In this document: positions 4,605-12,855 of the stretch, piece by piece | How positions within the stretch are numbered: position 1 is the stretch's first letter | How the letters are laid out: each line of letters begins with the position of its first letter | Origin: Candidatus Giovannonibacteria bacterium RIFCSPHIGHO2_12_FULL_44_22 | GTDB taxonomy: Bacteria > Patescibacteriota > Minisyncoccia > UBA11713 > 2-01-FULL-45-33 | Length of the DNA stretch: 64,000 bases | Assembly: GCA_001778695.1 (NCBI GenBank) | Contig: MFHU01000003.1 | Span: 75,112-139,111, forward strand | Reading direction: 5' to 3' | Notes under the pieces: model-generated | Told to the model about the DNA's origin: nothing | Seen by the model: the letters and a program-made list of their open reading frames with translations, nothing else | The model's database searches: none | Program-made: the position numbers and the translations under genes

Positions 4605-6828
<2,224 letters not shown>

Positions 6829-9159: not shown

Positions 9160-9688
9160 TCTCATAAACTCAATTTTTGATTTGGCTTTTAATATTATAG
9201 ATTTTTTAATTAACTACGATTATTCGCGGCCGGTGCCCTTGCTAAAGGCCTTGGCGGTTTATATTTCCATCCCGCTGGTTTTTGGCATAATTTACAGCAT
9301 TTACAAATCCAACCAGATTTTCAGGGCGATGCACGTTTTTGACGAGCCGAAAGGAACGCCGTTGGAGAAAAATAAAAATCAGGAGGATTGGGATAAAATT
9401 TTGGCTGGCGGAAAATCGGAAAATGAAAACGACAGGAAACAAGCAGTAATTTCCGCGGATTCTTTGATTGAGAAAATTTTGGGGATGGCCGGATATTCTG
9501 GAGAAAATTTAGGGGAGAAATTAAAAAATATCGAGCCAGCGGATCTGGATTCTCTGGACGCGCTTTGGGAAGCGCATAAAATCAGAAACCGCATCGCCCA
9601 CGAAGCCGGCTATCAGCTTCTCAAAGAAGATTCCGAAAAAGCCCTCGCCCTTTTTGAAAAAGCGTTGAAGGAATTGGAATATATTTAA
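9152..9688 (+). CDS. Hypothetical protein with an N-terminal TM segment
   Basis: ATG overlaps the gatA stop. No recognisable motifs. Confidence 0.4.
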   Translation: MIDLINSIFDLAFNIIDFLINYDYSRPVPLLKALAVYISIPLVFGIIYSIYKSNQIFRAMHVFDEPKGTPLEKNKNQEDWDKILAGGKSENENDRKQAVISADSLIEKILGMAGYSGENLGEKLKNIEPADLDSLDALWEAHKIRNRIAHEAGYQLLKEDSEKALALFEKALKELEYI

Positions 9689-9703
9689 TTTTTCTTTTCG
9701 CGG

Positions 9704-9774
9704 TAGCGGGGGCGGGAGTTGAACCCACTTCTGGAGGTTATGAGCCTCCCGAGATACCGTTTCTCTACCCCGCA
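9704..9774 (-). tRNA. tRNA with CAU anticodon (Met or Ile2 type)
   Basis: Hand fold gives D stem GAGA/TCTC, anticodon stem GGAGG/CCTCC, loop CTCATAA and T arm GTGGG-TTCAACT-CCCGC. The acceptor stem pairs 6 of 7 positions, and position 1:72 looks unpaired (T:T). No encoded CCA. Confidence 0.55.
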
Positions 9775-9815
9775 TCGTAATCGCTATTATACTGTCTTTA
9801 TTAAGATTGAGCAAA

Positions 9816-9860
9816 GAAAAACCGCCCTTCGTCCGCCAACTAGCGGACTCGGCGGTTTTT
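9816..9860 (-). terminator. Rho-independent terminator downstream of csp; A/T runs on both sides, so possibly bidirectional
   Basis: AAAAACCGCC..GTCCGC-CAACTA-GCGGAC..GGCGGTTTTT. Confidence 0.6.
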
Positions 9861-9872
9861 CTTCCGCAACGC

Positions 9873-10073
9873 TTATGCGCGCGATACATTGACTGCCGCT
9901 GGGCCTTTTTCGCCCTCAACGACTTCAAAGGTGACTTTGTCGCCAACCTTCAATTCGTCATATGTTACGCCTTTCAACTCCTTGGAGTGAAAGAAGAGAT
10001 CCTTTGTCTCGCCTTCGCGAGCAATGAATCCAAATCCTTTGGGCGTAAGTGTCTTGATTGTTCCTTCCGACAT
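9873..10073 (-). CDS. cspA: Cold-shock protein (CspA family)
   Basis: 66 aa. RNP motifs GFGFI and VFFH-like, in the block KGFGFIAREGETKDLFFH. Confidence 0.85.
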   Translation of the reverse strand: MSEGTIKTLTPKGFGFIAREGETKDLFFHSKELKGVTYDELKVGDKVTFEVVEGEKGPAAVNVSRA

Positions 10074-10170
10074 GCGATTTGTTTTTATAATTAACTATAC
10101 CGAGAAACTCGACTTTGTTTCTGTGCTTTACAACACCAAATTAGTGTAGCATGTAATCGGAATTTATACA

Positions 10171-10201
10171 AATAAAAAAAGGGGAGCCGGCGGGGGCTCC
10201 C
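10171..10201 (-). terminator. Rho-independent terminator of the lytic transglycosylase gene
   Basis: Minus-strand reading GGGAGCC-CCCGCC-GGCTCCCC followed by TTTTTTT. Confidence 0.6.
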
Positions 10202-11047
10202 TTAATGCGCTGATTCGTCCAGAGGCAATTCATGTTTCGTCTCCTGATTTGAGCACGAAAAGTCTTCAGGATTGAAAGTGCCGGCCAGATAAGATTTAAA
10301 TAATCTCCCGGCGCAAGCCACTCGAAATGGGTAAGTAGGAGTCCAATCATGTTTCGCAGAATCAAATTTGGCAATCATCTCCGCCAGTTGCGGGTTTTCC
10401 CCCGAATGGGCTATAAAATACAGCTTGGTTGGAGTCATATCCTCGTTTTCCCATCCCGGTGTTTTCTTCGCGACGGAAATGAATCTATTCACTAAACCTT
10501 CCCCCGCGTGATACGCCCAAATTGCGTTGTTTATATTTCCGAAGCGCTCCGCGAGGCCGGCAAGATGTTTAGCCGAAGCCATTGTCGCCAATTTAGGATT
10601 AAATCTATCATCCCGCACGATAACTTTTTTATAAACGGGAATTCTTGTGATTTTCCCTTTGCGTCGGGCAACGACAGTTTTTTTAATATTGCCGTATTTA
10701 ACTAGCCCCATATTTTTTCCGGTAAGGGGCATAATTTGCCCGATTCCGGAAGCTCCCGAGCGGTTTTTTGCCGTGGGATCACAGCCACTTTCCAGAAGAA
10801 TGATTTCCAAGAGTTTGTCTTCCGGAAATCCGCTCGTTTCTGAGGCCTCGCGAAACATTTCAAGGTAGGTGGTCTTAGCGCATTCGCTAAGGCCTTTAAA
10901 GAATCTTTCTTTCGCAATGAAGACTCGCGCTTGCATCGCGATAAGGGCTTCCTCTTTCTCTTCAAAGATCTTGTTGGCATCTATCTCCTGCCCATACACT
11001 CGCAACGTAACGGCGAGCAATAAAATTGAAAAGATCGCTATTTTCAT
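10202..11047 (-). CDS. Secreted lytic transglycosylase (SLT domain)
   Basis: N-terminal signal peptide. SLT catalytic motif ESGCDP...SGASGIGQIMP. Strong SD GAAGGAGGG. Confidence 0.75.
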   Translation of the reverse strand: MKIAIFSILLLAVTLRVYGQEIDANKIFEEKEEALIAMQARVFIAKERFFKGLSECAKTTYLEMFREASETSGFPEDKLLEIILLESGCDPTAKNRSGASGIGQIMPLTGKNMGLVKYGNIKKTVVARRKGKITRIPVYKKVIVRDDRFNPKLATMASAKHLAGLAERFGNINNAIWAYHAGEGLVNRFISVAKKTPGWENEDMTPTKLYFIAHSGENPQLAEMIAKFDSAKHDWTPTYPFRVACAGRLFKSYLAGTFNPEDFSCSNQETKHELPLDESAH

Positions 11048-11203
11048 AATAAACCCTCCTTCTATAAAATGAATTATGAACTAAGAAATACATAGCACCC
11101 TTCAATTTAAATGTCAACTATTTGTTTATGCGCGTTTGCCGCCAAATTGAATACACCCGTCAGTAAAATGTATTCGGCTCTTGTTTCTGATTCGTTCATA
11201 CAG

Positions 11204-12076
11204 TTATACGCCTATCTTCCATATTTCTTTTTCAAGAAATGCTTCGATAGTTTGGCGCGTCGCTTTATTAATGAGATTTGAATGTGATAATTTATTTTCT
11301 TTTGCGTACTCGGCAAGTGTAATAATTTTCTTACCTTCCAAATACGCCAGCCTTTTGTGGTAACTATTAGTAAGCGACTTAGCTACAATTTCTTCCATAA
11401 TCTCTGTTTTACTTTTTGTGTCGAATTCCTTGAACGCATCATAATATTTTTTCCGGTCAATGAATTTTATGTTGATCGGCGCATATCCCTCACGAATTAA
11501 AAGATAATTATTGATCACTCGCCCAATGCGTCCATTACCATCTACAAACGGGTGCGTGTATTCAAAGGCAAGATGTAGCCCAGCAATTCGTTTAATAATA
11601 TTTTCTTGACTGCTCGCATGATATTCTGCAAGCATTTTTTCAAGTCGCCCCGCCACTTCTTCCGGCTTTGGCGCGATATGGCTTCCCACTCTCACATATT
11701 CTCCCGACGCACGAAACCTTCCGGCAACATCATCACGAATATTTGAGATAAGCATTTTATGGAGAGATAAAATAACATCAAGCGTTAATTCTTGTTCTTT
11801 GGCTCGCTTCTCTATATATGACACCACTCTAGCCAGATTTTTTGCTTCAAAAATTTCTCGCTCACTGATAAACCTGTCTAGGTCAATTTGGAGCAGTATT
11901 TTTTCAGTTTCTTCAAGAGTAAGCGTGCTATTTTCAATAGCGTTGGAGTTATAAACTTGTTCAGCAATTTCCGCTTCGCTCACAAGCTTAATAAGCGCCT
12001 CTTTGCCGGTAGACGCTTTATAGTATCTTTCACGCAGTGAGTGTATTTTATTAAAAACGCTTAATACTTTAGCCAT
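11204..12076 (-). CDS. Fic-family protein (AMPylase type) with an intramolecular inhibitory motif
   Basis: Fic motif HPFVDGNGRIGR. N-terminal SNAIEN matches the (S/T)xxxE(G/N) inhibitory helix. Confidence 0.8.
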   Translation of the reverse strand: MAKVLSVFNKIHSLRERYYKASTGKEALIKLVSEAEIAEQVYNSNAIENSTLTLEETEKILLQIDLDRFISEREIFEAKNLARVVSYIEKRAKEQELTLDVILSLHKMLISNIRDDVAGRFRASGEYVRVGSHIAPKPEEVAGRLEKMLAEYHASSQENIIKRIAGLHLAFEYTHPFVDGNGRIGRVINNYLLIREGYAPINIKFIDRKKYYDAFKEFDTKSKTEIMEEIVAKSLTNSYHKRLAYLEGKKIITLAEYAKENKLSHSNLINKATRQTIEAFLEKEIWKIGV

Positions 12077-12085
12077 ATACCCCCA

Positions 12086-12112
12086 TTATAGTAAAATTCA
12101 CGGTTTTGTCAA
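12086..12112 (-). promoter_or_regulatory. Sigma70-like promoter for fic
   Basis: On the minus strand: TTGACA, a 16-nt spacer, TATAAT, then GGGGG (SD) and ATG. Confidence 0.5.
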
Positions 12113-12156
12113 CATAATCGTGAAAATATAGTATTTTTTTGATGTTTTTCACGGTT

Positions 12157-12333
12157 TTAGCTATAATTTCCCCAAAAACGTCTTATTGAGAACCGTTTTT
12201 TAATCTGCTCTAAATCATCAAGATACTTTAAGAACAAAATCCAAGAAGTTTGCTCAATATAATCAAGCTCTGTGGCGCACCCAGCATCGCGATGCAAAAT
12301 ATCGTCTATATTCCGAAATGCTTGCTCAAACAT
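12157..12333 (-). pseudogene. 58-aa remnant of the N-terminal domain of a type I restriction-modification / N6-adenine methyltransferase (HsdM_N)
   Basis: Manual translation: MFEQAFRNIDDILHRDAGCATELDYIEQTSWILFLKYLDDLEQ..., which fits the HsdM N-terminal pattern (LR...EY...LLFLKYL.D), followed by an early stop. It is below the ORF-track length cutoff. Confidence 0.5.
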
Positions 12334-12420
12334 TTATAGTTTAGTCGCTACAAATAATGAGCTTAGAATAACATAAATTAACGCTTTGCAGAATAAAACT
12401 GTAAGGTTATTAAAATAAAA

Positions 12421-12455
12421 CAGAAGTGGCGGATTTTATCCGCCACTTCTGTTTT
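12421..12455 (-). terminator. Terminator hairpin downstream of the tRNA cluster; A/T runs flank both sides, so possibly bidirectional
   Basis: Perfect 12-bp stem CAGAAGTGGCGG-ATTTTAT-CCGCCACTTCTG, flanked by T and A runs. Confidence 0.6.
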
Positions 12456-12540
12456 ATCATTTTCCAAGCCGATCGGTCTTCCGATAAAAAGTGTTTCGGG
12501 CGCGGGCGATGGGATTTGAACCCACGATCTCCTCTCATGA

Positions 12541-12656
12541 CCCCGCACCAAAAATTTCCAGCGGGCCCGAAGGGATTTGAACCCTCGATCTTCCCCGTGA
12601 CAGGGGGACGTGTTGCCAGGCTACACCACGGGCCCATATTTAATTTTGGTGCGGGG
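12541..12656. repeat. 13-bp perfect inverted repeats (CCCCGCACCAAAA and TTTTGGTGCGGGG) bracketing tRNA-Asp with 8-nt spacers on each side
   Basis: Read directly. The left arm is 12541-12553 and the right arm is 12644-12656. Confidence 0.85.
12562..12635 (-). tRNA. tRNA-Asp (GUC)
   Basis: GGGCCCG-TG-GTGT-AGCCTGGCA-ACAC-G-TCCCC-CTGTCAC-GGGGA-AGATC-GAGGG-TTCAAAT-CCCTT-CGGGCCC-G. Confidence 0.85.
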
Positions 12657-12712
12657 CGGGCAGGGAGGCGTGTTAACCAGGCTACACCACGCCCGCATAA
12701 TTTTTTAGCCAA

Positions 12713-12784
12713 TGGCTGCAGCAGGGATCGAACCTGCGACCTAGGGCTTATGAGTCCCTCGCTCTACCACTGAGCTATGCAGCC
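12713..12784 (-). tRNA. tRNA with CAU anticodon (Met or Ile2 type)
   Basis: GGCTGCA-TA-GCTC-AGTGGTA-GAGC-G-AGGGA-CTCATAA-GCCCT-AGGTC-GCAGG-TTCGATC-CCTGC-TGCAGCC-A. G1-C72 is paired. Confidence 0.8.
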
Positions 12785-12855
12785 GATTATTATACAAATA
12801 TACAACAAATTAAGCAAAAATTGAAGAATAAATCAATATAAAGTATTATTAAAAA

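Follow-up and report, generated by a model that had tools for sequence, protein, structure and literature searches.

What does a type I restriction-modification (RM) locus leave behind when it decays, and why does an intact Fic gene stand in the middle of the remains? The question is raised by contig MFHU01000003.1 of Candidatus Giovannonibacteria bacterium RIFCSPHIGHO2_12_FULL_44_22 (assembly GCA_001778695.1), from which a stretch of 64 kb, referred to as the window in the following, was analyzed. On the minus strand of the window, read from high to low coordinates, a tRNA cluster is followed by a 58-codon open reading frame (ORF), a promoter region, a Fic ORF, a 30-codon ORF and a gene for an SLT-type lytic transglycosylase (Table 1). 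An earlier note on this DNA had taken the 58-codon ORF for the N-terminus of the type I methyltransferase HsdM and had read the arrangement as a whole as a type I RM locus with an embedded Fic gene, of which one corner survives. Here, we arrive at the view that the region from ~11167 to 12333 (minus strand) very probably constitutes the remains of a horizontally acquired type I RM locus in which a self-contained class II Fic gene has been spared by decay; autoregulation of this gene and a role of its product as a latent effector are inferred steps of that scenario.

For comparison, species-representative genomes were scanned with the Fic protein, and loci were taken from the best 80 of at least 352 genomes. 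Locus counts given below refer to 81 non-redundant loci, while the promoter consensus is based on 74 and the spacing of conserved boxes on 70 of them. The sole intact RM locus in this set stems from Parcubacteria bacterium Licking1014_17 and is designated L048. On one strand, it encodes a 484-aa HsdM, three small ORFs, a 400-aa HsdS, a 290-aa Fic protein and a 776-aa HsdR, and searches with Pfam and PADLOC profiles yielded matches for HsdM (N6_Mtase, E-value 3.7e-62), HsdS (Methylase_S, 2.8e-36) and HsdR (ResIII, 2.8e-36; EcoEI_R_C, 5.6e-26). In blastn comparisons, window positions 12333-12197 align with 83% identity over 137 nt to L048 positions 5873-6009, i.e., the very beginning of hsdM (E-value 4e-36), and window positions 12216-11167 align with 73% identity to L048 positions 9859-10902, a block that starts 57 nt before the end of hsdS, runs through the intergenic promoter and all of fic and ends 33 nt into hsdR. 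The two blocks are colinear and overlap in the window at 12216-12196. Measured against the intact locus, this arrangement shows that two deletions took place, one of ~3.85 kb and one of at least 2.3 kb. The gene order of L048, the colinear blocks and an hsdR head right after the Fic stop codon thus bear out the proposed surviving corner.

With regard to the 58-codon ORF, residues 1-46 are 93% identical to the HsdM protein of L048. A comparison of the complete 58-aa peptide with Pfam profile HsdM_N (PF12161) gave 24.5 bits (E-value 4.6e-5), which is exactly the gathering score of the family and borderline when taken alone, with 34 of 135 profile positions covered. The assignment is supported by a database search, in which the peptide retrieved 544 matches; most of the 120 matches listed have PF12161, and among these identity to residues 1-46 reaches 96%. 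For residues 1-46, the identification as HsdM N-terminus therefore stands. It does not hold for the ORF as a plain remnant, and neither does the former description that the ORF stops after its HsdM part: past codon 46, it continues with the 3' tail of hsdS, which is read in the wrong frame. The two parts meet at the junction GATTTAGAGCAGATTAAAAAA, a 21-nt microhomology between hsdM (encoding DDLEQxKK) and the hsdS tail (encoding ADLEELKK), which agrees with hsdM at 19 of 20 and with hsdS at 16 of 21 positions. Beyond it, the last ~11 codons of hsdS and the stop codon are all that remains of this gene, and in their own frame they read VLNKTFLGKL* as compared with VLKEAFLGKL* in HsdS of L048. 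Judged by the alignment to the intact locus, the 58-codon ORF is a deletion chimera that consists of hsdM codons 1-46, the junction and an hsdS tail that is one base out of frame.

The hsdR head is a third scrap that was overlooked in the earlier note. It opens the 30-codon ORF behind the Fic gene, and 10 of its first 11 residues are identical to HsdR from L048, which starts with MNEAETRAEYIDPKLKASGW, while all 11 agree with another related locus (L015). Homology to L048 ends after codon 11, the remainder of the 30-codon ORF is unrelated sequence, and a Pfam search with the 30-aa peptide yielded no match. Weak tblastn matches of this peptide antisense to Fic were judged to be due to chance. 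The hsdS tail and the hsdR head flank the Fic cassette, and no other piece of a type I RM system and no intact hsdM in another frame were found in the 64 kb. In line with this, the window offers no HsdM with an N6_Mtase domain, no HsdS with two target-recognition domains and no HsdR helicase-nuclease, as a functional type I system would, and the fragments present are colinear with the intact hsdM-hsdS-x-hsdR locus of L048, as type I remnants would be.

Table 1. Features of the Fic locus and its surroundings in the window (positions refer to the 64-kb stretch).
Feature	Position	Strand	Evidence or remark
Perfect 20-bp terminator hairpin at the end of the tRNA cluster	12415-12457		
58-codon chimeric ORF hsdM'::'hsdS, out of frame past codon 46, judged a pseudogene	12157..12333	-	L048 alignment
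hsdM 5' remnant, codons 1-46 of the type I RM methyltransferase gene	12196..12333	-	L048 hsdM similarity, Pfam HsdM_N
Deletion junction GATTTAGAGCAGATTAAAAAA	12196..12216	-	overlapping blastn blocks
hsdS 3' tail including its own stop TAG (12163-12161), 1-nt shift relative to the hsdM part	12161..12195	-	aligns to L048 hsdS 9880-9915
Box 1 AAAACCGTGAAAA, predicted distal operator half-site, left end of the conserved Fic cassette	12146..12158	-	exact match
Box 2 TTTTCACGATTAT, opposite in orientation to boxes 1 and 3	12114..12126	-	12 nt upstream of the -35 start
Sigma-70-type promoter TTGACA-16-TATAAT, box 3 in spacer	12085..12112	-	12/12 match
Box 3 AAAACCGTGAATT, in promoter spacer	12107-12095	-	
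Intact Fic gene, 290 aa, class II	11204..12076	-	Pfam, FICD alignment, AlphaFold2, Foldseek, dN/dS
Inhibitory motif SNAIEN, residues 44-49	11947-11930	-	
Catalytic motif HPFVDGNGRIGR, residues 175-186	11554-11519	-	
C-terminal winged-helix-like domain, residues ~250-290	11329-11207	-	AlphaFold2 model
hsdR 5' remnant, codons 1-11, MNESETRAEYI	11167..11199	-	L048 alignment runs 33 nt past the Fic stop
30-codon ORF beginning with the hsdR head, then unrelated sequence	11107-11199	-	
SLT-type lytic transglycosylase gene	11047-10202	-	

The loss of RM genes around a Fic gene is not confined to the window. The Fic protein occurs with 81-90% identity across many phyla, in at least 352 species genomes that include many from Patescibacteria (Candidate Phyla Radiation, CPR). 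In 79 of the 81 related loci it stands alone in unrelated neighborhoods; besides the intact locus L048, a distant type I system is present in one locus (L020), a few kb upstream of Fic. Traces of RM genes are nevertheless found at the borders of the cassette: an hsdS stop-codon tail (...GGGGAATT[AG]TAG[TC]C) lies just before box 1 in ~19 of 70 loci, and hsdR heads of differing lengths follow Fic in L015, L018, L026, L043, L069 and L079. In addition, the database entries obtained with the 58-aa peptide (at least 120) include many 'proteins' of 47-102 aa that consist of HsdM_N only (P0122-P0240), some of them on long contigs, and at least two of these represent hsdM::hsdS deletion fusions, independent analogues of the 58-codon ORF with different junctions. 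In P0219 (74 aa), hsdM(1-46) is fused in frame to the hsdS tail, and a 290-aa Fic follows 84 nt later (L095-L097). The other, P0222 (55 aa), is an hsdM stub with an hsdS-like 'GEL' tail that precedes a different Fic protein of 379 aa with Fic_N and Fic domains (L098, 4001-5386). Because one of the two fusions is located before a different type of Fic, this comparison of sequences suggests that an hsdM stub next to a Fic gene is a general outcome. A further type I locus (L099) is full of frameshifts and lies beside an integrase. With regard to Fic genes inside type I RM loci, the literature yielded only general papers on embedded defense genes (PMC11411939; bioRxiv 10.1101/2024.01.29.577857) and none on this clade.

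The three small ORFs between hsdM and hsdS in L048 (7527-8713; 131, 144 and 115 aa) matched neither Pfam nor PADLOC profiles. The last one looks membrane-spanning, and the first two have counterparts with 73-83% identity in L047, where they lie about 5.6-6.0 kb upstream of Fic.

The Fic protein encoded in the window matches Pfam family PF02661 with 79.2 bits (cut-off 24; E-value 4.2e-22), and both the catalytic motif and the N-terminal SNAIEN motif recognized earlier were confirmed. It combines the HxFx(D/E)GNGRxxR signature, an (S/T)xxxE(G/N) helix on the same chain N-terminal to the core and the Fic fold, and thus belongs to class II of a scheme that reportedly goes back to Engel et al. 2012. 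Its closest solved relative is human FICD (E-value 1e-21), the inhibitory TVAIEG of which aligns with SNAIEN. An AlphaFold2 model that was based on an alignment of homologues with 26-90% identity reached a pLDDT score (predicted local distance difference test) of 95.3 and a predicted template modeling score of 0.91; this alignment replaced one of 43 homologues with at least 84% identity (pLDDT 43). In the model, a helix at residues 26-47 leads into SNAIEN, and Foldseek matched the structure to FICD (6i7g) with an E-value of 3.5e-13 and a template modeling score of 0.76 (root mean square deviation 2.4 A over about 248 columns). For residues 251-289, a beta-alpha-alpha-beta-beta unit was modeled at a pLDDT of ~95 or more, which corresponds to a winged-helix topology, and even among homologues with as little as 26% identity, N270, A272, R274, Q275, A279, F280 and W286 of this domain are invariant or almost invariant. 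Median dN amounts to ~0.12 with synonymous sites saturated, and dN/dS is ~0.04 where dS is finite. The gene is predicted to be functional and is constrained. Among PADLOC profiles, the protein matches PDC-S04 (1.2e-34) better than SoFic (5.3e-27).

Upstream of the Fic gene, the sequence that had been described as a textbook promoter deserves this name. It is the only 12/12 match in the segment 10000-13500, in which promoter-like sites number 17 as compared with 8.8 +/- 2.8 in shuffled sequences, and the consensus TTGACAAAAnCGTGAAAA...TATAAT is common to the 74 related loci. In 45 of these 74, the -35 element starts 36-37 nt before the ATG, and since this leaves ~8 nt behind the -10 element, the mRNA would be leaderless or nearly so. 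The GGGGG previously read as a Shine-Dalgarno sequence is indeed present (12084-12080), but it falls into the 8-nt gap between -10 and ATG and is not conserved in relatives, which makes such a role doubtful.

The promoter is accompanied by three boxes that belong to a fixed module. In almost every locus, Fic is preceded by box 1 AAAACCGTGAAAA, box 2 TTTTCACGGTTATG, TTGACA, box 3 AAAACCGTGAAAA within the spacer and TATAAT. The distance between boxes 1 and 2 is 27-28 nt in all 70 loci, and that from box 2 to the start of the -35 element is 12 nt in 65 of 70. Even at 50 and 41% identity, two homologues, one of them from a high-GC host, show a CGTGAA/TTCACG inverted repeat, which brackets the -35 element in L101 and lies just upstream of it in L100. 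The boxes hence have the properties of an operator, as they are repeated, inverted, overlap the gene's own promoter and are conserved together with fic. Across the 64 kb, the box motif occurs at 8 sites (three of them at Fic) as compared with 7.5 expected, and with this lack of enrichment there is no sign of a regulon. Since no other gene travels with the boxes in the related loci from many phyla, the simplest reading is that they would be bound by Fic itself. The three boxes and the C-terminal winged-helix-like domain suggest autoregulation of Fic.

From these observations, the following course of events is proposed. As the alignment to L048 shows, a locus of the ancestral order hsdM-(small ORFs)-hsdS-fic-hsdR suffered a deletion at the 21-nt microhomology, by which hsdM codon 46 came to lie next to the last ~35 nt of hsdS, and the second, larger than or equal to 2.3 kb, removed hsdR after codon 11. 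The fic cassette with its three CGTGAAAA boxes, the consensus promoter and the 290-aa class II Fic is the sole intact survivor. The fic stop codon overlaps the hsdR start codon (ATGA) in the intact locus, as it also does in L043 and L036, so that the TTGACA-16-TATAAT promoter probably once served a fic-hsdR operon. On the protein level, the N-terminal inhibitory helix with SNAIEN and Glu48 would hold the FICD-like AMP-transferase core latent, and the C-terminal beta-alpha-alpha-beta-beta domain would bind the boxes that flank and fill the promoter, by which Fic would repress its own transcription. By analogy with SoFic/PDC-S04, Fic is a putative latent toxin or single-gene defense effector, located in the slot that PrrC has in EcoprrI, and it would have been retained by selection while the RM genes were lost.

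A more far-reaching proposal can only be offered tentatively. Fic proteins of this clade may be two-in-one proteins, in which the winged-helix tail controls the fic-hsdR operon of a mobile type I RM family, in analogy to a C protein, and the FICD-like head is a latent AMPylating effector. Self-repression and self-inhibition would then keep Fic harmless and useful after loss of the RM genes, and this would explain why it recurs as the last survivor in hundreds of CPR and other genomes.

Could the present arrangement have arisen without a complete RM locus ever having been part of this genome? The Fic cassette might be a mobile unit that carried the hsdS tail and the hsdR head as passengers and landed beside an unrelated hsdM fragment. 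The solitary state of Fic in 79 of 81 loci agrees with such a unit, as does the fact that conservation always ends at box 1 on the left side. Furthermore, the copies of an att-like 49-nt direct repeat of the 3' end of tRNA-Lys(TTT), 48/49 identical, are spaced by 1003 nt in L061 (8762-9813) and enclose precisely the 1-kb cassette, which begins with box 1, ends with the Fic stop codon and contains no integrase; this duplication of a tRNA end argues for arrival of some cassette copies by tRNA-site integration. A tRNA is present within 500 nt of the cassette in 7 of the 81 loci versus about 2.7 expected, a mild enrichment. In the window, on the other hand, the 5' end of hsdM is found in the order and orientation of L048, with the hsdS tail attached to it at a microhomology, the signature of a deletion, and the end points of remnants vary among loci. 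Moreover, neither an integrase ORF nor an att-like repeat around the islet was detected, and no copy of a tRNA end is present in 9600-12850 or anywhere else in the window; the earlier suggestion of an island integrated at the adjacent tRNA cluster is therefore unsupported. Independent arrival of the cassette is thus quite improbable, and since an RM-fic locus surely arrived by transfer, it is in part compatible with decay of such a locus.

The two products of the region, the Fic protein and the 58-aa peptide, could each be assigned a different role. FICD acts on an Hsp70, as AMPylase and deAMPylase of BiP, and with FICD as closest solved relative the Fic protein might be a housekeeping regulator that reversibly AMPylates an Hsp70-type chaperone or another core protein. 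Very strong purifying selection over many phyla is in accordance with this, and in one Parcubacteria lineage (L010-L012, 4031-8891) the cassette directly follows grpE-dnaK-dnaJ and is itself followed by genes for an EcoRI-like methylase, RhuM and GmrSD. The adjacency to dnaK is, however, restricted to that lineage, while the distribution of the cassette is patchy without a fixed genomic position, its origin lies inside an RM operon, its neighbors are often defense genes (EcoRI-like methylase, RhuM, GmrSD, PLD and a type ISP enzyme), and the protein matches the PDC-S04 and SoFic profiles, all of which renders a housekeeping function unlikely. Far less probable still is a functional small protein that retains the N-terminal module of HsdM. 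It would account for 46 uninterrupted and conserved hsdM codons, for the identity of the 58-codon ORF in four independent assemblies and for the many HsdM_N-only entries of 47-102 aa in the database, some on long contigs. Against this, the tails past codon ~46 differ from stub to stub, being out-of-frame hsdS in the window, in-frame hsdS in P0219 and unrelated in others, and only 34 of the 135 positions of the HsdM_N profile are covered. Nor is there a Shine-Dalgarno sequence or a good promoter before the ORF, and a test for an hsdM promoter upstream of 12333 revealed no conservation between loci ahead of the ATG.

Decay of a type I RM locus around Fic thus remains the preferred explanation, and several points count against it. 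L048 is just one intact reference locus among 81. The hsdR remnant comprises 11 codons and is not significant when taken alone (tblastn E-value 0.7); what lends it weight is where it lies, that the DNA alignment continues into it and that it recurs in other loci. A neighborhood comparison via the SLT neighbor retrieved only two metagenome loci, which have the SLT gene and its promoter alone in common with the window, and in this way no empty site or syntenic relative was found by which the insertion and the deletions could be timed. As to the Fic protein, its C-terminal 75 residues gave no significant sequence match in Pfam, NCBIfam or the PDB, and DNA binding by this domain is inferred from the topology of the model and from co-conservation. 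With 36.8 bits compared with a cut-off of 550 for the NCBIfam SoFic equivalog NF046030, the protein is not a member of that family.

Both components of the locus, a class II Fic protein and a decayed RM locus, are of known kinds. FICD/HYPE and other class II Fic proteins (PDB 6i7g, 4u0u) likewise exhibit HxFx(D/E)GNGRxxR and an N-terminal (S/T)xxxE(G/N) helix on the same chain. The protein from the window differs from FICD by an identity of merely 26%, the lack of tetratricopeptide repeats and of a membrane anchor, the 40-residue C-terminal beta-alpha-alpha-beta-beta domain and the RM-operon setting. SoFic is a toxic class 2 Fic protein that confers single-protein defense by abortive infection (PMC12249575). 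SoFic/PDC-S04 and the Fic protein studied here have in common that they are class 2 proteins with an extra C-terminal domain encoded by a stand-alone gene. Unlike SoFic with about 370 aa, the latter has 290 aa, and as the sequence after the Fic stop codon is not conserved, there is no conserved small AS1-like gene downstream.

The type Ic locus EcoprrI with the anticodon nuclease PrrC resembles L048 in that a gene for a potentially toxic enzyme resides inside a type I RM locus, and in the prr locus prrC is found between hsdS and hsdR, in the slot of fic in L048. PrrC is kept latent by the RM enzyme of EcoprrI (PMC1484252). Fic is an AMP-transferase and not an ABC-ATPase/RNase, and unlike PrrC it can outlast loss of the RM genes because it carries its own inhibitory helix. 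In RM systems, the genes of C proteins, which are helix-turn-helix modules, directly precede the restriction gene, and their promoters have repeated inverted operator boxes over the -35 element. The Fic cassette may be regarded as analogous, with a putative helix-turn-helix-type module upstream of a restriction gene and repeated inverted boxes over its own -35 element. The differences are that the putative module is fused to an enzyme, that the system is of type I rather than type II and that the boxes are unrelated to C-boxes. Other decayed type I RM loci share with the window that only fragments of hsdM, hsdS and hsdR are left; the window differs from them by two clean deletions that spared one embedded gene together with its promoter.

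The exact Fic protein is also encoded by Candidatus Giovannonibacteria bacterium RIFCSPLOWO2_01_FULL_43 (GCA_001778835.1, MFIJ01000016), and several groundwater metagenome contigs carry it with identical neighbors. On the downstream side, the conserved SLT promoter starts near 11125, from which a length of ~1.2 kb follows for the islet. The ~41 nt at 11126-11166 (minus strand), which lie behind the hsdR remnant and ahead of the conserved SLT promoter (TTACTGACGGGTGTATTCAATTTGGCGGCAAACGCGCATAAAC), could be assigned neither to hsdR nor to the Fic cassette nor to the SLT unit. The SLT gene and its own promoter (TTGACAT...; 10202-11125, minus strand) recur with 79% protein identity in two metagenome contigs (L093, 5900-6849; L094). 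The SLT protein also matches lytic transglycosylases of phages in PHROGs, and the gene may itself be mobile. On the opposite side, the tRNA cluster contains a split tRNA (12484-12696, minus strand), the 5' half of which extends from 12696 to ~12664 and the 3' half from ~12541 to 12484, with ~122 nt in between. A complete tRNA-Asp(GTC) is nested between the halves at 12561-12635. The split gene was not called by ARAGORN, even with the intron option, or by Rfam; in silico removal of the insert gave a 77-nt cloverleaf that was called as tRNA-Met(CAT). The insert has complementary ends (CCCCGCACC...GGTGCGGGG), and in a 61-nt register the tRNA halves show 81-85% similarity to the corresponding segments of the tRNA-Asp nested between them.

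For annotation, these results mean that the hsdM', 'hsdS and hsdR' scraps can be labeled as pseudogene fragments and that the 58-aa 'hypothetical protein' of some pipelines can be removed. The locus provides a clean and datable case of an RM operon that was dismantled by microhomology deletions while an embedded gene was spared. What goes beyond the routine is the breadth and constraint of the Fic cassette and its likely autoregulatory design, as read from the sequences: it is a widespread cassette that had not been examined before, with three operator boxes at fixed spacing and a C-terminal domain that had so far been unclassified, and it presents itself as a practical candidate for asking whether Fic proteins embedded in RM loci are self-regulated defense effectors.

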